A stretch of DNA of 64,000 nt from Burkholderiales bacterium (GCA_947381415.1 CANCVB010000011.1:3518-67517); one strand, 5' to 3'; shown: positions 26,653-38,526, counted from the first letter of the stretch. A program made the numbers and translations. Notes: generated from the sequence alone by a model not told the origin.

Positions 26653-27936
26653 ATGAACGCTGTCACCACCATCCCTGAACTCATGCGCACCTTGGGCCTG
26701 CAAGCGCGTTGCGCGGCAGCAGGCATGGCGCGTGCCACGGCGGCGCAAAAAAACCGGGCCCTGCGGGCGCTGGCGCGCTTGCTGCGCGAACACACGGCGG
26801 CTTTGCAAACCGACAACGCCAAAGACCTGAGCCGCGCCCAAGCCGCTGGTTTGGCCGCGCCTCTGGCGGACCGACTCAAGCTTTCGCCGCAAACCTTGGA
26901 AACCTGTGCGCTGGGTTGCGAGCAACTCGCTGCCATGCCCGACATCATTGGCAGCATCAGCGGCATGAGCCAGCAGCCCAGCGGCATCCGCGTGGGGCAA
27001 ATGCGCGTGCCCATTGGCGTGTTTGGCATGATTTACGAGAGCCGCCCCAACGTCACCATCGAAGCGGCGTCACTCGCCATCAAGAGTGGCAACGCCTGCA
27101 TCTTGCGCGGCGGCTCCGAGGCCATCGACTCCAACAAAGCCTTGGCAGCGCTGGTGCAGCAAGCCTTGGCAGAAGCCGGCCTGCCCACCGACGCGGTGCA
27201 ACTCGTGCCCACCACCGACCGTGCGGCCGTGGGTGAACTCATCACCATGCCCCAGTATGTGGACGTGGTCATTCCGCGCGGCGGCAAGGGCTTGATCGAG
27301 CGCATCAGCCAAGACGCCAAGGTGCCGGTCATCAAGCATTTGGACGGCAACTGCCACACCTATGTGGACGACCCCTGTGACCTCGACATGGCGTTGAAAG
27401 TCGTTGACAACGCCAAGACACAGAAATACAGCCCTTGCAACGCGACAGAAAGTTTGTTGGTGGCCCGTGGTGTGGCGGCGGCGTTTTTGCCGCGCATCGG
27501 CCAGGTGTTGGCCGACAAAGGTGTGGAGATGCGTTGCTGCCCTGAAAGCAAAACCTTGTTGCAAGCTGTCAAGGGCGCGGTGCTCAAAGACGCCACCGAG
27601 CAAGATTGGTTCGAGGAGTATTTGGCGCCCATCATCAGCATCAAGCTGGTGGACGGCTTGGACGCGGCCATTGCCCACATCAACCACTACAGCAGCCACC
27701 ACACCGACGCCATATTGACGCTGAACCATGTGCACAGCCAGCGCTTCATGCGCGAGGTGGACTCGGCCAGCGTCATCGTCAACGCCAGCACCCGCTTTGC
27801 CGATGGTTTCGAGTACGGCTTGGGCGCCGAGATTGGCATTTCCACCGACAAATTCCACGCGCGTGGACCCGTGGGCATCGAGGGGCTCACCTCGCTGAAG
27901 TATGTGGTGTTGGGGGCGGGGGAAGTGCGGGGGTGA
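26653..27936 (+). CDS. proA: Gamma-glutamyl phosphate reductase
   Basis: [34 protein letters not shown] motifs. Confidence 0.97.
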
Positions 27937-30828: not shown

Positions 30829-31533
30829 ATGCGCCGCGCAGACCGTTTGTTTCAGATTGTCCAACTCATCCGAGGTCGCCGCCTGACCACGGCCCAGTGG
30901 CTGGCGCAGCGGCTAGAGGTATCCGAGCGCACGGTGTACCGCGATGTGGCTGACTTGCAATACCAAGGTGTGCCGATTGAAGGGGCGGTAGGAGTGGGCT
31001 ACCGTTTGGGTCAAGGTTTTGAGTTGCCGCCACTGATCTTCACCCCACAAGAGGCGCAGGCCTTGGTGGTGATGACGCGGGTGGCGCAGCAGTGGTTGGA
31101 CCCGGCCTTGGCGCGTGCCAGCGAATCGGCCTTGTCGCGGGTGTTGAGCGTCATGCCTGCAGACCAGCGTCATGCGGCGCAACACACGCCGGTGTATTCG
31201 CCGCCCTGGGGTTTGACACCGGCGCAACAACCGCACTTGCAGCTGTGGCGCGAGGCCACACAAGCCAGTGACAAGCTGGCACTGGTCTACAGCGATGCCC
31301 AAAGTCGCACCAGAGAACGCACGGTATGGCCCTTGGGCAGCTTCTTTTGGGGCACGGTCTGGACGCTGGTGGCTTGGTGCGAAAAGCGCCAAGACTTTCG
31401 CAGCTTTCGACTGGACCGCATCCAGTCCATGCGTGCGCTGGGTCAGCACTTCAAGCTGGTCGATGGGCAGCGCCTCATCGACTATTTGCGCCTGCAAGGC
31501 GTGGACCCGCAGGCCTTGGCCGACGGTCGCTGA
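30829..31533 (+). CDS. HTH-WYL domain transcriptional regulator (YafY-like)
   Basis: N-terminal HTH (LEVSERTVYRD); WYL-type WTLVAWCEKRQDFRSFRLDRI. Confidence 0.92.
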   Translation: MRRADRLFQIVQLIRGRRLTTAQWLAQRLEVSERTVYRDVADLQYQGVPIEGAVGVGYRLGQGFELPPLIFTPQEAQALVVMTRVAQQWLDPALARASESALSRVLSVMPADQRHAAQHTPVYSPPWGLTPAQQPHLQLWREATQASDKLALVYSDAQSRTRERTVWPLGSFFWGTVWTLVAWCEKRQDFRSFRLDRIQSMRALGQHFKLVDGQRLIDYLRLQGVDPQALADGR

Positions 31534-31542
31534 CAGGACCTG

Positions 31543-31803
31543 TTGATGAAACCCATTGAGATTCAAACAAAAAAGGTGCTGGGCCTGTTGGTACGCACCT
31601 GCAATGCAGATGAAATGCAGGCCAGTACCGCACGCTTTGGCCCATTGTGGAAAGACTTTGCAGCGACAGTCGCTCCAAGCCTGCCTCTAACAGCCCAGGT
31701 GTTGGGTGTTTATTACCGCTATGCATCAGATGCCCACGGCGCTTTTGAACGCAACGGCCCCGAAGGGAAGATCGAGATATTCATCGCCGTGGTGCAGCCA
31801 TGA
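31543..31803 (+). pseudogene. GyrI-like effector-binding protein with apparent internal in-frame deletion
   Basis: N-terminal GLLVRTCNADE and C-terminal FER..IEIFIAV fit the family, but the ORF is only 86 aa. Confidence 0.55.
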
Positions 31804-32237
31804 ATCACTGGATCGGCGTGGTCAGCCGCTCGCATGTGCTTCGCGGGGTTGCGGGTGGTTTTGCGCAGATGAACCACGGCAAGCAAGCGCCGCTCCAGCG
31901 CATGAAGGCCGGGGATGGGTTGATTTATTACTCACCGCGGGAGGACTATCCCGATGGTGCACCCTTGCAAGCCTTCACCGCTTTGGGGTTCATCCGCACG
32001 GGTGAGGTTTACGCATACGACATGACGGCAGATGGTGTGCCGGGGTTTGTGCCCTGGCGCATCGATGTGGATTTCGTTCCAGCGCAATCGGTGCCCATCA
32101 AGCCCCTGATTGCGCAGTTGGAGTTCATCAAAGACAAAACCCACTGGGGTGCGGCTTTCCGGTTTGGGCAGGTCCGAATTGGCGAAGTGGACTTTCGGTG
32201 CATTGCGCACGCGATGGGATGCATATTGCGGGGATGA
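31800..32237 (+). CDS. EVE domain protein
   Basis: WIGVVSRSHV..G..GF.Q.NHGK, GDGLIYYSP, WGAAFRFG motifs. Confidence 0.85.
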   Translation: MNHWIGVVSRSHVLRGVAGGFAQMNHGKQAPLQRMKAGDGLIYYSPREDYPDGAPLQAFTALGFIRTGEVYAYDMTADGVPGFVPWRIDVDFVPAQSVPIKPLIAQLEFIKDKTHWGAAFRFGQVRIGEVDFRCIAHAMGCILRG

Positions 32238-32238
32238 A

Positions 32239-32358
32239 TTAAAGGCCGTCGTCCTTTGATGCAGCCTTGCTTTTTTCTTTGGCTTCAAAGTAAGACGCAG
32301 CCAAAGACATGGCGCACATCAATATGGTGAAGCCAATCACGATATAGACGATATTCAT
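32239..32358 (-). CDS. Small single-pass membrane protein, 39 aa (MNIVYIVIGFTILMCAMSLAASYFEAKEKSKAASKDDGL)
   Basis: Translated by hand; AAGGGA RBS 7 nt upstream; hydrophobic N-terminus and charged tail; below the ORF-track size cutoff. Confidence 0.5.
   Translation of the reverse strand: MNIVYIVIGFTILMCAMSLAASYFEAKEKSKAASKDDGL
32276..32310. repeat. 35-bp direct repeat, copy 1 (TCTTTGGCTTCAAAGTAAGACGCAGCCAAAGACAT)
   Basis: Identical to 38491-38525; contains an internal inverted repeat. Confidence 0.9.
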
Positions 32359-32391
32359 GCGCTGTTCCCTTGTGAATTGAGAAACTCAGCT

Positions 32392-32554
32392 TCATCGTCA
32401 ACGCCAGAACCGATTTGCCGATGGTTTTGAGTACGGCCTGGGTGCCGAGATTGGCATTTCCACCGACAAATTCCACGCCCGTGGACCCGTGGGTATTGAG
32501 GGGCTCACCTCGCTGAAATATGTGGTGTTGGGGGCGGGGGAAGTCAGGGGTTGA
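32392..32554 (+). pseudogene. proA: Second, diverged copy of the proA 3' end
   Basis: Hand alignment to 27773-27936: 12 substitutions and one 1-nt deletion (about 92% identity), ending in TGA. Confidence 0.93.
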
Positions 32555-32557
32555 CGG

Positions 32558-33178
32558 CTAAATCCAAGTGGTTGGTCTGGTTAAGACATACCCATCTGGC
32601 CTAGTCACTTCATCTGGTAATTGCGACTGTCTGAGATGTGCTTCGCCGATGGTAAAAAAACCGTTGGATGCCTTTGACAACTCGTTGGATTTGCGCCCAG
32701 GTGGAAAAGCAACGATCAAGCGCTTAGAAGGAAATTGCCGTCGCAGCGTGGTGACAGGTGTGGTGAGGTCGCTGTCACCTGAAATCAAGATGGCGGTATC
32801 AAAAAGATCTTCGTAGGCATCGGTCAACAGTTGAACCGCCATGTTGACGTCGGTCATTTTTTCTTCATAACTCAACCATTGGGCACCACAGGCATGGCAT
32901 TGCCGAGGTTTTTCCAAGAAATGTCCCCAATGAATATCAAGACCAGATAGGCAAGCCAATGCCTCAAGGTAGGTCGTTTGTCTTTGAATATCGGTTTGGT
33001 TGTTGTTCGTGGAGCGAATGCGTGACGTGAAGTAATGAACTTTGCGCAACTGTTGATCGTGCTTGAGCAGTGCACTTGCCAAAGCCACTAAATTAAGCCA
33101 ATAGAGTTTGCGCCAGCCTTTGCTTTTCATGCCAAAGTAAAGGTTAAAGCCGTCCACATAAGCCACAACGCGTTGCAT
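32558..33178 (-). CDS. NYN (LabA/DUF88, PIN-like) domain RNase
   Basis: YVDGFNLY, EEKMTDVNMA, ISGDSDL acidic motifs and a CHACG insertion; alternative start at 33217. Confidence 0.9.
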   Translation of the reverse strand: MQRVVAYVDGFNLYFGMKSKGWRKLYWLNLVALASALLKHDQQLRKVHYFTSRIRSTNNNQTDIQRQTTYLEALACLSGLDIHWGHFLEKPRQCHACGAQWLSYEEKMTDVNMAVQLLTDAYEDLFDTAILISGDSDLTTPVTTLRRQFPSKRLIVAFPPGRKSNELSKASNGFFTIGEAHLRQSQLPDEVTRPDGYVLTRPTTWI

Positions 33179-33222
33179 GTGAAAACCAATTTCGGTTTTA
33201 AGGGTAAATGGGGACATCGACT

Positions 33223-33324: not shown

Positions 33325-33493
33325 AAAGACTAAAAAACTAACCCATTTCAGGCTTGCTCTACAAGAGCCCCAAAGGATACATAAAAAATACAAATACAAA
33401 TGTATTTTTAATTTATTTTTACTAATTCAGGGTTCAGCACAAATTCACCCATCGTTGCGACGGGTGTCGCGTTGAGCGCTTCGCTGCAATCTA

Positions 33494-34122
33494 AATGAAG
33501 TAACCGCACAAATACATGGCGGCTGGAGCTCATACGACTGCGGCCACTACCGAAGCGTGGTTCTAGTAACCGCACAAATACATGGCGGCTGGAGCGAAGC
33601 CGATACAGAGGGGTGTTTGTTGCTGTTCTAGTAACCGCACAAATACATGGCGGCTGGAGCGAAGCAAATACAAACAGCCATGGATATTAGTTCTAGTAAC
33701 CGCACAAATACATGGCGGCTGGAGCGATGTAGAGCATTCGGATATTGGTTTCCGTGTTCTAGTAACCGCACAAATACATGGCGGCTGGAGCTGCCATAGG
33801 GTTCTTTCAAATAGTTGAGATGTTCTAGTAACCGCACAAATACATGGCGGCTGGAGCCAAAACCCACCAAGGCAAGGGGTGTGGACAGTTCTAGTAACCG
33901 CACAAATACATGGCGGCTGGAGCCGCCCTCTTGCTCTGTGCACTGGCCGCTGTGTTCTAGTAACCGCACAAATACATGGCGGCTGGAGCTTGATGCAATC
34001 ACTTGATCGTATGTTTCGCTGTTCTAGTAACCGCACAAATACATGGCGGCTGGAGCAAGAACTGTCATAGGTACAGCATTTTTAACGTTCTAGTAACCGC
34101 ACAAATACATGGCGGCTGGAGC
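33494..34122 (-). CRISPR. CRISPR array: 10 repeats of 36 nt (GCTCCAGCCGCCATGTATTTGTGCGGTTACTAGAAC on the minus strand) and 9 spacers of 29-31 nt
   Basis: Nine identical repeats start at 33560, 33625, 33690, 33756, 33822, 33888, 33954, 34021 and 34087, plus an end-degenerate repeat at 33494; spacers are unique; strand inferred. Confidence 0.98.
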
Positions 34123-34131
34123 CGACCCGCT

Positions 34132-35733
34132 TCAAACCTTTGATTGCAAAGGATTTTCTTCAGTTTGGCCATTCGAAAAAAAGGCTTGGTGCAGGTCATG
34201 GTGAGCCTGGGCATGGTGGTTTTTGCACAAAATCTGTACCGCATCAAGTGTGGTGCGCCGCTCTCCTTCGCTGATGGGTCGGGTGTGGTGCACATCCAGC
34301 AAATGCACGGCGGTCACACCGCAGTCTGCGTGCATGCATTGGGGGCCGTGGTGCTTCAAAGCGGCTGCGCGCAGTTGCGCGTTGCGCTCGCGCTGCAAAT
34401 GGGTTTGCAAGACTTCAGCACCCTCTACAAAACCGTCCCAGTCCACATGGAAGCGCTCAGGAATGGCGGGGCGCAAAGCCATGCGAGCGCTTCGGGGGTC
34501 TAGCAGCAGCAGGGTGCATTGGGCGTCGGGGGTGCGCAGCCCTCGGTGCAAGCCTTGGTGGGTGCGGCGCAGCGCCACCACTTGGCTGTCGATGAAGTGG
34601 TTGAGGGCTTGCCCATTCACTGCCATGGGCTGGCCATAAGGCGTTTGCGGGATGACCACGGTTTGCCAGCGCAAGCGGGGTTCGTCCAAGCCCGACCACG
34701 CACCCGCCGCGATCAGTACCCCGCCATCAGGGCAGCGTTGCACAGCATCAGCCAAGGGCTCTTGCGGCATGCGGACCACCGCGTCGGGCAACAACGCACC
34801 CAGTTGGGCGCTCATATGGTGGCTATTGGTCAGCACCAAGCAGGGTTTGGCGGCATGGGCGATGCGCTGCGCCATGGCGTCGTGCGTCAAGGTGTCGGTG
34901 GCCACCTCCACCTTCAGGCTGCCATGCTGTGCGGGGTCGAGGTGGCGGCTTTCGGGGGCGATGGCTTGCAGGCCAAGGCAGCGCACGAAATGGTCAAAAC
35001 GGCCATTGACTTGCAGCGTACCGCTGGTGAAAACACAGCGCGGCACATCGCGCACCAAGGGCTTGAGCATGCGCCCCGGCATGCGGTGCTTGAGCAGCAA
35101 AGCGCCGTCGTCGTCATGACCCACCACTTTGTAGGCCGCAGGGTGGGCCAAGGCATACAAGATGGCACTGGCGGCGCAACGGTCTTCGGCTTGGCTGGCG
35201 TGTTGCAGCACCTTTTGCGCGGCGATCGCCGGTGCCAACGAAGCAGCACCGCAGTCGGCAAGGGTGGCGGCGCTGATGTGGAAGGTGCTGCGCAGATCGG
35301 CGGCATCGGCCAGCAAATCGGCCTCGTCAAACAGCACCACATCACGTTGGCGCAGTTGGGCGTAGCCTGGCTGCAAGCTGTCAATCAAAGCCGCTGCATG
35401 GGTCAGCACCAGCACTTGCGCTTGCATGGCTTGGGTGCGGTGCGTTTGGTAGTCCTGTTCGCTGGCAAAACTGTGGCGGGTTTGCAAAGCCACCACGCTG
35501 ATGGGGTGCGATTCACAGGCCGAGTGAAGTGCAGCGCTTTGCAGGTATTGCTGCATCAATTGTCGCGTGCTCATGGCAATGGCGATGCGTTTGCCCGAGC
35601 GCACCAAGGGAATGCTGTAACCATGGGTTTTGCCCAAACCTGCTGCGGCGCCTGCCAACAAGGGTGGACCAGGGCGCAGCGCGGTCTCGATCAGCTTGGC
35701 ATAGCGCTGTTGCTCAGGGCTGCGAAAACTCAT
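34132..35733 (-). CDS. dinG: DinG-family helicase (Csf4) with C-terminal HNH nuclease, 533 aa
   Basis: AAAGLGKT, DEAD, FTSGTL, GAWSGLD, QGLHRGLR, LLDPR; C-terminal C-x4-C...VHH.RP...LCKNHHAQAH; ATGA overlap with csf2. Confidence 0.9.
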   Translation of the reverse strand: MSFRSPEQQRYAKLIETALRPGPPLLAGAAAGLGKTHGYSIPLVRSGKRIAIAMSTRQLMQQYLQSAALHSACESHPISVVALQTRHSFASEQDYQTHRTQAMQAQVLVLTHAAALIDSLQPGYAQLRQRDVVLFDEADLLADAADLRSTFHISAATLADCGAASLAPAIAAQKVLQHASQAEDRCAASAILYALAHPAAYKVVGHDDDGALLLKHRMPGRMLKPLVRDVPRCVFTSGTLQVNGRFDHFVRCLGLQAIAPESRHLDPAQHGSLKVEVATDTLTHDAMAQRIAHAAKPCLVLTNSHHMSAQLGALLPDAVVRMPQEPLADAVQRCPDGGVLIAAGAWSGLDEPRLRWQTVVIPQTPYGQPMAVNGQALNHFIDSQVVALRRTHQGLHRGLRTPDAQCTLLLLDPRSARMALRPAIPERFHVDWDGFVEGAEVLQTHLQRERNAQLRAAALKHHGPQCMHADCGVTAVHLLDVHHTRPISEGERRTTLDAVQILCKNHHAQAHHDLHQAFFSNGQTEENPLQSKV

Positions 35734-36725
35734 GCCGATGCATGCGCTGGTTCTGCTGCTTGAACAAAGGTCTGACCTTGCGGCGTCCATGCACATTGAG
35801 CCGCTTGCAGACCACCAAAGTCCAGCACCAACAACACCTCGCCATCGGCAGTGCTGAAGCGCACTTGCCCCTTGATCTCGCCGCAACCCCTGGCTTGTTG
35901 CGCACCGATGAACGGTTTTCGGCTCAGGCCGTCAAAGGCGGTGACCAAGGTTTGCAGGTCGAAGGCTTGGGCATGCATCATGGTGAGCTTGCCGCTGAGG
36001 GTGATGCCAGCGGGAATCACTTGCAATTCCAGCAAGTGCTTGGAGTTGTCAGATGTGTCGCCGCCCTTTTGTGTTTTTTTAAGCGCTTTGAGTTCTTCAA
36101 CTTTGGCTGTCAAGGCGTCTATTTTTTCTTGGTCTTTCAGCTTGCGGGCGGCACTCAGTTCGCGCATGCTGAGTTTGATCAAGCCCTCGGCTTTGGAGGC
36201 CAAACCTTGCTTGCCTTGACGCTCATAAAAGCGGTCTTGTTCTGTGTCGTCGAGCAAGCCCATCATGTCTTGGTTGGTGTCCAAGTCGTGTCGAATGTGG
36301 CTGATGTTGTCGGGCAAGACATTGACCGACGGCAAAAGGTGCGAGACATAAAGACGGCTGGCCACCTTCCAGGTGCCAAACAAATCGAGAAACGGGTTTT
36401 GCTGTCGAAATGCGATTTGCTCTTTCAGTTTGATGGCTTCGGGTTCGTCGTCTTCGCTAGGGCGCAGATCTTGTCCCAGTGCCAACAAATATGCATCCTC
36501 CAGCTTGGCTTTGTGGGGGCGCCCGCGCAGTTCGGCGAAAGCAGCTTCGTGGCGCAAGCGGCCCCGCAGTTGCGCGGCGGGGATGTAGACGCTGCGCTGG
36601 TGGCGGCCTTCGGCATCGATGCCACGGGTCAGCAGGGGCAGGCCATCTGTGCCGTGGTGGGTGAAGGTCAGGGGTTGCACGGTGTGCAGGTCGATGGTGG
36701 CAACCAAGGTAAGGCTAGAGGTCAT
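35730..36725 (-). CDS. csf2: Type IV CRISPR backbone subunit Csf2 (Cas7-like), 331 aa
   Basis: VYIPAAQLRGRLRH, NPFLDLFG, Gly-rich IGAQQARGCG; position in the cas operon. Confidence 0.85.
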   Translation of the reverse strand: MTSSLTLVATIDLHTVQPLTFTHHGTDGLPLLTRGIDAEGRHQRSVYIPAAQLRGRLRHEAAFAELRGRPHKAKLEDAYLLALGQDLRPSEDDEPEAIKLKEQIAFRQQNPFLDLFGTWKVASRLYVSHLLPSVNVLPDNISHIRHDLDTNQDMMGLLDDTEQDRFYERQGKQGLASKAEGLIKLSMRELSAARKLKDQEKIDALTAKVEELKALKKTQKGGDTSDNSKHLLELQVIPAGITLSGKLTMMHAQAFDLQTLVTAFDGLSRKPFIGAQQARGCGEIKGQVRFSTADGEVLLVLDFGGLQAAQCAWTPQGQTFVQAAEPAHASA

Positions 36726-36742
36726 GGTGTGGTCTTTCGGGG

Positions 36743-37225
36743 TTATTGAACGATCAAGAGGTTCAGGCCAAAGGCTTTGCCCACCTTGCCAATGCCTTTG
36801 CTCAGGCACAGGGCAAACGCTGCGGGCTCGTTCACTTTCAAAAGGCCGGTGAATTCAGTGGCGTCTAACTTGAAGCGTCTGCCGTCATGGGTTTGCACTT
36901 CTTGCATGCCGGGTGTGATGTGCACGCCGACAATTTCAAAGCCGTGCTTCATGCCTTGTTTGTCCAGCCAAGCCCTGCGACCACGCCAATCAGCCAAAGG
37001 CAGGTATTTGTGTTTGTGGCCGCTACTGAACGACACGCAAGCGGTGGTGGTGAACGCCAACAATTTGCCACTGTCGTAGTGGGGCGGTGTGGCCTCTTCG
37101 GGGCGGATGCGCAGTTGTTGCCCCTCATCGGCCCACAAAGCGGGTTTGCCGTTTCGGTATTGCTCAACAATGCGGTGCAAGGCATAGCCACGCACACGCG
37201 GGGGTTTGTCTATCAAGATGTCCAT
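36743..37225 (-). CDS. cas6: Compact Cas6e-like crRNA-processing RAMP, 160 aa
   Basis: WLDKQGMKHGF, FTGLLKV, GIGKVGKAFG C-terminal Gly loop; ATG after GGAGAA. Confidence 0.8.
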   Translation of the reverse strand: MDILIDKPPRVRGYALHRIVEQYRNGKPALWADEGQQLRIRPEEATPPHYDSGKLLAFTTTACVSFSSGHKHKYLPLADWRGRRAWLDKQGMKHGFEIVGVHITPGMQEVQTHDGRRFKLDATEFTGLLKVNEPAAFALCLSKGIGKVGKAFGLNLLIVQ

Positions 37226-37626
37226 GTTTTCTCCTGGGTGGCGTCGTAGGTGTGGACTTTGCCTTCGCTGCACAAGCGAGCTGCGCGTGGGTCATAGGTG
37301 ACAAACAGGTCCCGAGCGGTCATGTTTCGCTTGCCCAGAGCAAGCAAGATGCATGGATCGCCAGACTGAAGGGCTTCTTTGATGGCGGTTTTGCGCTCCA
37401 TGTCTTGGCGAAAACCAAGCGCAGGTAAGAACTTGAAGTTGGTGGCCACCCATTGCGGTGTGACCACCATCCAACAAGTTTGAATGCGTCTTTGTTTTTT
37501 GCTCTTCTGGATAGTTAGCGACAGACGCAATAGCGTGTCTGCGTCGGTCACAGCATCTTGGGTCTGTTGGTCAGTTGGCAGCAGGCGGTAACCGACATGG
37601 CGCATGAAAAAATCGGGTCCGTTCAT
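37213..37626 (-). CDS. Putative reduced Csf1 (Cas8-like) subunit, 137 aa
   Basis: Coupled between csf3 and cas6; weak Csf1-like segments (CWMVVT, DPCILLALGK); identity is mostly positional. Confidence 0.45.
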   Translation of the reverse strand: MNGPDFFMRHVGYRLLPTDQQTQDAVTDADTLLRLSLTIQKSKKQRRIQTCWMVVTPQWVATNFKFLPALGFRQDMERKTAIKEALQSGDPCILLALGKRNMTARDLFVTYDPRAARLCSEGKVHTYDATQEKTWTS

Positions 37627-37629
37627 GGC

Positions 37630-38250
37630 TCATACCTGTGGCGCAAAACATCGGGTGCGGTTGCGCACATCCCAATAGGGGGCTTTCCAAGCGGCTTCGA
37701 CAGCAACCCAATCGCCGCCTTGTGTCCAGCGCTCAGTGGGCACAGGACGCAAGGGGTCGTCTGCATAGCCCACCACGCCATCCAGTTCGCCAACCTCTGC
37801 ATCCCAGCGAACCACTTCGCCATAGCCTGCGGTTCTGCGCTTACCAATGAAAGGGATGGAGCGCACCACCTCCAACACAGCTTTCATGTCGCCCGTGGCA
37901 TACCACTCGATGGCGTTGGCAACAGTCGCGGTGTAGGCGTTGATGATGTTGCCGGCTTCACGCTGCCTGCCCAAGCCAATTTTCAGGTCACCGTCTTTGG
38001 TGTTGGACTGCAACAGCGCCAACCAATGGGGCGAGTGTTCTGGCCGCATGCTGGCCACAAACGACGCTCGTTGCGTGGCGTGGGCTTCTACCGCAAAGCC
38101 CGAACTGGCAAAGTACAAATCGTTTTCGCAATGCAGCAGGTGGGACACATCACCACAGGCCAAGCTCGACATGAGCAGCGCATCCAAGGTGACGTGACCG
38201 CGCCGAATCACGGGGGTGCGCAAGTGTGCGCGAAGGACAAAAGGATTCAA
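37630..38250 (-). CDS. csf3: Type IV CRISPR Csf3 (Cas5-like), 206 aa
   Basis: TLDALL, EWYATGD, IGKRRTAGYGEV, RPVP, APYW motifs; TTG start after AGGAAG. Confidence 0.85.
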   Translation of the reverse strand: MNPFVLRAHLRTPVIRRGHVTLDALLMSSLACGDVSHLLHCENDLYFASSGFAVEAHATQRASFVASMRPEHSPHWLALLQSNTKDGDLKIGLGRQREAGNIINAYTATVANAIEWYATGDMKAVLEVVRSIPFIGKRRTAGYGEVVRWDAEVGELDGVVGYADDPLRPVPTERWTQGGDWVAVEAAWKAPYWDVRNRTRCFAPQV

Positions 38251-38486: not shown

Positions 38487-38526
38487 GATGTCTTTGGCTT
38501 CAAAGTAAGACGCAGCCAAAGACATC
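38487..38526. repeat. 35-bp direct repeat, copy 2 (38491-38525), inside a perfect 13-bp inverted repeat
   Basis: GATGTCTTTGGCT-N14-AGCCAAAGACATC; core identical to 32276-32310. Confidence 0.9.

Follow-up and report, generated by a model that had tools for sequence, protein, structure and literature searches.

The closest described system to the locus analyzed here is a type IV-A variant from Sulfitobacter sp. JL08, in which an HNH domain is found at the C-terminal end of DinG (Altae-Tran 2023, Science; PMC10910872). Plasmid interference by this system has been shown in E. coli; it uses a 5' YCN PAM, requires all five of its genes, and degrades double-stranded DNA directionally, in a manner that depends on ATP and on the HNH domain with its catalytic residues H497, D514, and H523 (PMC10910872). 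The published plasmid maps give the operon order Csf3, "M protein (Csf1/Cas8)", Cas6/CasE, Csf2, and DinG-HNH (pHS1068), and a 36-nt repeat, AATACAGCCATCCGGAAATTGGGTGGCTACTAAAGG, paired with a 30-nt guide (pHS1182); small-RNA sequencing of the Sulfitobacter crRNAs likewise gave 30-nt spacers (PMC10910872). The IV-A1 system of Pseudomonas oleovorans and the IV-A3 systems of Klebsiella pneumoniae plasmids also combine Csf1, Csf2, and Csf3 with Cas6, DinG, and an array, and lack cas1-cas2.

We examined a CRISPR array in the window, a stretch of 64,000 nucleotides from the genome of a Burkholderiales bacterium, together with the five minus-strand cas genes that run toward it: csf3, a csf1-like gene, a cas6e-like gene, csf2, and dinG-HNH (Table 1). 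The array very probably belongs to a compact type IV-A system of the rare DinG-HNH variant encoded on the chromosome, with a layout of 36-nt repeats and 30-nt spacers (36/30) that was inherited within this clade and was not recently captured from a class 2 system.

Table 1. Features of the array, its leader, and the cas operon, in window coordinates.
Feature	Coordinates	Strand	Basis and remarks
CRISPR array, ten 36-nt repeats and nine 29-31-nt spacers	33494..34122	- (crRNA sense)	repeat search, 68 related loci, hairpin covariation
Degenerate terminal (trailer-end) repeat	33494..33529	-	hairpin kept, 4 of last 5 nt altered
Leader	34123..34192	-	overlaps dinG 3' end, only 9 nt non-coding; conserved blocks in 41 dereplicated upstream regions
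IHF-consensus-like motif AATCAAAGGTTTG (WATCAANNNNTTR)	34133..34145	-	-23 to -11 from first repeat
T-run, second conserved leader block	34176..34182	-	about -60 to -54; consensus TTTT about -59 to -55
dinG-HNH (Csf4 helicase with C-terminal HNH nuclease domain), 533 aa	34132..35733 (probable start 35733; longest ORF extends to 35886)	-	PADLOC typeIV_DinG E=1.8e-40
HNH core, C-x4-C ... HH ... C-x2-H-H	34201..34338	-	residues invariant in 22 homologs
csf2 (Cas7 backbone)	35730..36809 (probable start 36725)	-	PADLOC Csf2_0_IV E=3.4e-32
Cas6e-family crRNA endonuclease	36743..37273 (probable start 37225)	-	Pfam PF08798 E=1.2e-13; PADLOC Cas6_5_IV E=5.4e-23
Small Csf1/Cas8-like subunit, 137 aa	37213..37626	-	24% identity, E=1e-5, to Sulfitobacter "M protein (Csf1/Cas8)"
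csf3 (Cas5)	37630..38250	-	PADLOC Csf3_0_IV E=1.4e-27

The array and its cas operon

The feature is a genuine CRISPR array. A repeat search found ten copies (n=10), starting at 33494, 33560, 33625, 33690, 33756, 33822, 33888, 33954, 34021, and 34087, with start-to-start spacings of 66, 65, 65, 66, 66, 66, 66, 67, and 66 nt and spacers of 30, 29, 29, 30, 30, 30, 30, 31, and 30 nt. The bases adjoining the repeat are not conserved, and 36 nt is therefore the true repeat length. The repeat reads GTTCTAGTAACCGCACAAATACATGGCGGCTGGAGC on the plus strand and GCTCCAGCCGCCATGTATTTGTGCGGTTACTAGAAC on the minus strand, and nine of the ten copies are identical. The remaining copy, which lies farthest from the cas genes, ends in ACTTCATT in place of ACTAGAAC when read on the minus strand, and a similar decay at the 3' end of the last repeat occurs in three related loci (L010, L015, and L018). 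The 2.51-Mb, 40-contig genome holds no further copies of the repeat outside the array and no second CRISPR array. An earlier note on this DNA, made from the sequence alone, had described 36-nt repeats with these spacer lengths and this minus-strand sequence, and its description was correct in every detail that could be measured.

All five cas ORFs are intact, with conserved Walker A/B motifs and HNH Cys/His residues. In the DinG helicase (Pfam DEAD E=3.8e-9), Walker A (GLGKT) and Walker B (LFDEAD) are invariant in 22 homologs, as are the HNH residues C466, C471, H482, H483, C503, and H507. The Pfam HNH match to the DinG tail taken by itself is weak (E=0.01), and PF01844 is recorded for several homologs. 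The 137-aa Csf1-like ORF has no family match in Pfam or PADLOC; a gene of 136–139 aa occupies the same slot in all relatives examined.

Against the Sulfitobacter proteins, BLASTP gave 33% identity for Csf3 (E=1e-35), 24% for the 137-aa ORF with the M protein (E=1e-5), 32% for Cas6 (E=3e-29), 32% for Csf2 (E=7e-39), and 35% for DinG-HNH (E=1e-93), the last with the Walker B DE and both catalytic HNH histidines aligned. The two systems thus have the same five genes in the same order, and all five proteins are homologous at 24–35% identity. They also share the 36-nt repeat, the 30-nt spacer, the position of the hairpin, an 8-nt tail of the ACUA type, and the lack of adaptation genes; the Sulfitobacter repeat matches the minus-strand repeat at 21 of 36 positions without gaps, with the stem in the same place and an 8-nt tail in both. 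The two systems differ in that about two thirds of the residues are not identical, a freshwater betaproteobacterium is the host here and a marine alphaproteobacterium there, and the fourth zinc ligand of the HNH domain is His here and Cys in Sulfitobacter. The HNH acidic residue that aligns with D514 is shifted one position earlier (LDAV versus LxDV), a variation also seen in other homologs. If the system works as the tested Sulfitobacter one does, Csf proteins assembled into a complex on crRNA would bind PAM-flanked DNA and recruit DinG-HNH, which would then move 5' to 3' and shred the target.

HNH-bearing variants are classed apart from IV-A2 (PMC11519345). The earlier note had contrasted the 36/30 layout with that of Cas6e-linked IV-A arrays, and a difference from IV-A1 and IV-A3 is upheld: their repeats of 28–29 nt, which are I-F- or I-E-like and cluster with those of types I-F and I-E (PMC7038947), are combined with spacers of about 32 nt. 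Their DinG is nuclease-free and they act by repression, whereas the DinG described here bears an HNH domain. They are also mostly plasmid-borne, in contrast to a DinG with no plasmid-encoded relative in PLSDB at E<=1e-20, and their genes are arranged in an order other than the one found here.

Several further features lie around the operon. An identical 35-bp direct repeat, TCTTTGGCTTCAAAGTAAGACGCAGCCAAAGACAT, is present at 32276–32310 and 38491–38525 and brackets the array, the cas operon, and a gene for an NYN-domain protein (about 6.2 kb in all); the pair may mark an insertion. Flanking direct repeats were considered as a general mobility signature of these cassettes and rejected, as among eight relatives checked they were found only for L014 in addition to the window, and those of L014 are a duplicated tRNA end. 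The NYN-domain protein (32558–33217, minus strand) is encoded just past the trailer end of the array and matches the candidate defense family HEC-09 in PADLOC (E=3.3e-94); the gene is not a conserved neighbor in relatives. Beside it, at 32387–32554, is a duplicate of the 3' end of a proA-like gene located 4.6 kb away (27768–27936; 92% identity), which suggests an island junction. Upstream of the island are genes for an HTH-WYL regulator (30829–31533, plus strand; PADLOC "CAS-associated" WYL, E=3.7e-64) and an EVE-domain protein (31800–32237, plus strand), which together look like a small defense neighborhood.

Repeat hairpin, strand, and predicted crRNA processing

RNA transcribed from the minus strand of the repeat is predicted to fold as .....((((((((......)).))))))........ 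at −9.9 kcal/mol, with positions 6–11 paired with 23–28 and an 8-nt 3' tail left over. The plus-strand RNA of the same repeat has a lower predicted energy (−13.1 kcal/mol, z = −3.3) and a 7-bp terminal stem. Because the plus-strand fold is the more stable of the two, fold energy alone cannot give the strand for this repeat, but comparison across the family does.

The family alignment used for this purpose contained 44 modal repeats from related loci and was free of gaps. Cells of the hairpin formed by positions 6–13 and 21–28 pair in 93% of cases, compared with 21–60% when the partner column is slid, and compensatory changes are found at pair 9/25 (C-G to U-A, in 7 sequences) and at pair 10/24 (A-U to G-C, in 11 sequences). 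A G7-U27 pair is present in 100% of the sense repeats versus 7% of the antisense ones. The sense-strand fold is the more stable in 40 of the 44 repeats, with the repeat described here among the four exceptions. The terminal pairs 2/35 and 5/32 form in only 2–23% of the sequences, so the terminal stem is not conserved, while the 8-nt tail ACUNGAAC is close to invariant. Near the ends of the repeat an inverted motif, TCnAG...CTnGA (positions 3–7 and 30–34), is also nearly invariant; it shows no covariation, hence no evidence of RNA pairing, and could be a ruler site for an integrase.

These patterns support the minus strand as the likely sense of the crRNA, with a predicted 8-nt handle. The earlier note had proposed both this orientation and the hairpin of positions 6–11 and 23–28 with its 8-nt 3' tail. 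The hairpin is borne out by the fold together with the family covariation, and the orientation by the covariation in the 44 repeats, the strand-specific G7-U27 pair, and the orientation of the repeat in the working Sulfitobacter constructs. Its use of the degenerate terminal repeat as an argument for orientation also holds; the hairpin of that copy is intact and 4 of its last 5 nt differ.

The opposite arrangement, in which the array would be transcribed on the plus strand from the AT-rich flank at 33330–33440 and the repeat would form a class 2-style hairpin with paired ends, is very improbable. The energy and 7-bp terminal stem of the plus-strand RNA are what such a model would predict, and the AT-rich stretch that adjoins the 33494 end does resemble a classical leader. 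The repeat beside this flank, however, is the degenerate copy, the family as a whole has not kept the terminal stem, and 93% of the antisense repeats lack the 7/27 pair. The greater stability of the sense strand in 40 of 44 family members, the expression of the repeat in cas-strand orientation in the tested Sulfitobacter constructs, and the position of both the conserved leader motifs and the polarized spacer gain at the dinG end (see below) all point the other way.

Under minus-strand transcription, then, the most likely course of processing is that the Cas6e-family nuclease cuts the conserved hairpin of the repeat at its base on the 3' side, which would yield a crRNA consisting of an 8-nt 5' handle (ACUAGAAC) followed by a 30-nt spacer and, at the 3' end, a hairpin handle of 28 nt. 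With a 5' flank of 5 nt ahead of the hairpin and an 8-nt tail behind it, the repeat follows the type I-E/Cas6e plan with a larger hairpin. The likeness to type I-E extends to the nuclease family (PF08798), the G+C-rich stem, and a 3' tail that becomes the 5' handle; the differences are that type I-E has a 29-nt repeat with a 4-nt loop and 32-nt spacers, whereas here 30-nt spacers separate 36-nt repeats that have a longer stem and a loop of 7–11 nt. The plan of the repeat fits a nuclease of the Cas6e family, and a class 2 origin is not called for to explain it.

The 36/30 layout across the clade and its origin

A protein search returned 127 DinG-HNH homologs at 42–90% identity. The loci surveyed came from three sources: 10 from genomes that represent their species (for the most part Polaromonas, Rhodoferax, and further Burkholderiales), 8 contigs obtained through exact-protein look-ups, and 53 metagenome contigs recovered with a degenerate repeat pattern. 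The repeat is 36 nt long in all 68 related loci with arrays. Among 421 unique spacers in these loci, lengths of 30, 29, and 31 nt account for 366, 27, and 25, respectively, placing 418 at 29–31 nt; this spacer length of 30 ± 1 nt is extremely tight across the clade and possibly useful to specialists. Of the 53 contigs found by the repeat, 42 carry genes of the cassette, with the other 11 being single matches or arrays severed from the cas side, and none carries cas9, cas1, or cas2, which ties the repeat family to the DinG-HNH cassette.

In relatives the cassettes occur in unrelated chromosomal contexts, often beside toxin-antitoxin genes, and BrnT/BrnA and PemK genes lie directly downstream of the array in several of them (L037–L039 and L043). 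In some loci (L014, L017, and L037–L039) nearly all repeats differ from one another, mostly in the loop, while those of the array described here are uniform; such uniformity or divergence may separate recently active arrays from decaying ones.

On the strength of the 36/30 geometry, the earlier note had suggested that type II-C or VI-B machinery was the source of the array by capture, or feeds it. Capture is not supported by the survey. The published variant is itself 36/30 and the layout is common to 68 of 68 related loci, so that arrays of this repeat class are common in IV-A systems of the DinG-HNH variant, an outcome that the earlier note had itself named as refuting its inference. Because the layout is normal for this variant, it can be explained without anything taken over from a Cas9 or Cas13 system, and since the whole clade has it in common, any capture would be ancient and not a property of this particular locus.

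The resemblance to class 2 repeats was evaluated by counting identical positions. The comparison sequence for Cas13bt/Cas13X is the one given in the earlier note, presumed to be the repeat of that system. It matches the repeat described here at 24 of 36 positions, and the earlier note's arithmetic on this point was correct. For the type IV repeat family as a whole, the median is 20 of 36 against the presumed Cas13bt repeat and 18 against the reverse complement of that repeat, compared with 14–15.5 against unrelated real repeats and 9 ± 2.2 against shuffled repeats. Nine II-C repeats from the same order match the repeat described here at 10–22 of 36 positions, with family medians of 9–18, where unrelated real repeats reach 14–15.5. 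One II-C subclass (L147, L144, and L035) stands at the upper end of this range, with 19–22 of 36 against the repeat described here, a family median of 17–18, and a shared TCnAGC start and GGAAC end. Judged by these counts, the resemblance to the presumed Cas13bt repeat lacks specificity, being no higher for some family members than that of its reverse complement, and likeness in sequence does not decide where the repeat came from.

Type II-C arrays, such as those of Neisseria and of the Polaromonas locus L035, have 36-nt repeats and 30-nt spacers, but the identity of their repeats is only 12–18 of 36, there is no cas9, tracrRNA, or cas1-cas2 here, and the array has dinG and the NYN gene as its neighbors. 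Processing would differ as well, with RNase III acting on a tracrRNA duplex in type II-C and a predicted Cas6 cut at the hairpin here. Type VI-B and Cas13bt share the 36/30 layout and, for the presumed Cas13bt repeat, the 24 of 36 positions, but there is no cas13 here, the sole array of the genome is flanked by type IV genes, and the terminal stem that closes VI-B repeats is not conserved in the family.

The adaptation genes were considered across genomes. The genome described here, 99.9% complete by marker genes, contains no cas1 and has no match to cas9 (TIGR01865). No Cas1-like ORF was found in 71 related loci with a local HMM that was built from 7 diverse Cas1 proteins and is less general than the Pfam model. 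Cas1 is encoded on other contigs in 7 of the 10 relatives' genomes; 4 of these Cas1 loci belong to co-resident class 1 systems with 37-nt-repeat arrays and 32–37-nt spacers, and one genome (G061) has a cas9-cas1-cas2 locus with a 36/30 array. As cas9 occurs in 1 of 11 DinG-HNH genomes versus 43 of 301 genomes (14%) in the order, it is not enriched alongside the cassette.

Taken as a whole, the proposal that a type II-C or VI-B locus was the source from which the array or its class of repeat was captured, or that a Cas1-Cas2 of II-C or VI-B type supplies its spacers in trans, appears unlikely. In its favor are the II-C arrays of the same order, with repeats of 36–37 nt and spacers of 30 nt, the cas9-cas1-cas2 locus of G061, the 24 of 36 positions shared with the presumed Cas13bt repeat, and the subclass at 19–22 of 36 with its common repeat ends. 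The co-resident class 1 arrays, with their longer repeats and spacers, also do not fit, so that II-C is the only layout-compatible adaptation module seen. Weighing against these points, the layout and repeat family are clade-wide and extend to Sulfitobacter, whose proteins are about 33% identical; the repeat is built on the Cas6e plan and its sequence has changed together with that of the cassette; a terminal stem of the VI-B kind is absent as a conserved feature (pairs 2/35 and 5/32); and the sequence resemblance barely exceeds that to unrelated real repeats, with the reverse complement of the Cas13bt repeat scoring 18. To this are added the missing cas1 and cas9 of the genome, the lack of cas9 enrichment, and the 53 repeat-family contigs, 0 of which carry cas9, cas1, or cas2. 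We consider descent of the layout within the DinG-HNH clade the better account.

Leader, spacer turnover, and the source of new spacers

The array does have a leader. Only 9 nt separate the stop codon of dinG from the first repeat, and the sequence on this side contains blocks that are conserved in 41 leaders: a T-run near −58, AAa near −34, AaTCAAgg.cTTg at −23 to −11, and TCa at −3. The IHF consensus at −23 is matched exactly in 10 of the 41 dereplicated leaders and with at most one mismatch in 21, against background rates per position of 3.5e-5 and 3.5e-4, respectively. The leader described here matches it exactly, with the motif overlapping the last codons of dinG. In loci where the array follows csf2 or csf1 the −23 motif is non-coding, which indicates that it travels with the array. 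The −23 block is a putative IHF site by its match to the consensus, and spacer gain may depend on IHF.

Such sites have been reported in some II-C leaders as well, and the −23 motif therefore does not speak against II-C; an argument of that kind was considered and dropped. One IHF site combined with a motif about 50 bp upstream is the arrangement of type I-E, and the preprint that describes it confirms leader IHF sites for types I-E, I-F, and I-C (10.1101/2023.05.26.542337). The leader described here is like that of type I-E in this respect, with an IHF-like site and, further upstream, a second motif about 50 bp away from the repeat. An IHF site has also been reported in the IV-A3 leader (PMC7038947).

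The minus strand showed no promoter-like site ahead of the array, and past the array there is a weak terminator-like hairpin (33466–33446). A search for RNA sequencing runs that contain this stretch gave no hits. Given the lack of a promoter-like site of its own, the simplest reading is that the array is read through from the cas operon and co-transcribed with it, which would also fit relatives in which the array lies inside the operon. In this distant branch, with DinG 37–51% identical, the array is found between csf2 (or csf1) and dinG (L040–L042, L049, L055, L060, L064, L074, and L076; also L047, L062, L072, and L081), and some of its loci have the gene order cas6-csf2-csf3-csf1. With the array in this position, Cas6 processing would cut the operon transcript upstream of dinG.

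Comparisons between closely related arrays reveal turnover at the leader end. The array of L040 exceeds those of L041 and L042 by 5 units, and that of L092 exceeds the array of L091 by 6; in each comparison the additional units lie at the leader (operon-proximal) end. Cassettes whose DinG is 85–93% identical to the one described here have zero spacers in common with its array. Without a Cas1 in the genome, the array cannot grow in this host.

None of the spacers has a match longer than 16 nt in its own genome, and no protospacers were found in 50,697 phage records or 72,556 plasmids; exact 22-mers of three spacers had no match in IMG/VR. These results, the missing cas1, the HNH acidic residue shifted by one position, and the apparent decay of the repeats in relatives such as L014, L017, and L037 are what would be expected if the locus were an inactive relic and the array a fossil with no working guides. 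We regard this as quite unlikely, since the five cas ORFs are intact and have kept Walker A/B and the HNH Cys/His residues, 9 of the 10 repeats are identical, unlike those of decayed arrays, the leader motif matches the consensus exactly, and type IV systems normally lack cas1 (PMC7038947).

Across the clade, new spacers enter at the operon-proximal end, beside the conserved leader with its IHF-like site, and the Cas1-Cas2 integrase that adds them would act in trans. The combination of a phased leader, gain at the leader end, the presence of cas1-cas2 in 0 of 71 loci, and repeat and spacer lengths unlike those of the co-resident class 1 systems raises the prospect that a II-C-like integrase in trans may serve the clade. 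That the DinG-HNH clade depends on a type II-C-like Cas1-Cas2 in trans, possibly in earlier hosts, or else on an integrase not yet recognized as such, is a speculative proposal to which we assign a low probability.

The layout that seemed foreign at this locus characterizes a variant that was already reported and tested in 2023, and the locus itself is an ordinary member of it. Of possible use to specialists are the leader, whose IHF-consensus site keeps a fixed position at −23, whose T-run lies near −58, and which overlaps the end of dinG, and an array that turns over at its leader end although no locus carries an integrase. Together with the tight spacer lengths, these features sharpen the old question of how type IV systems acquire spacers, and the leader and repeat described here offer a concrete substrate for adaptation assays. 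If the dependence on a II-C-like integrase were true, no class 1 effector before this one would have been known to receive its spacers from a class 2 adaptation module.
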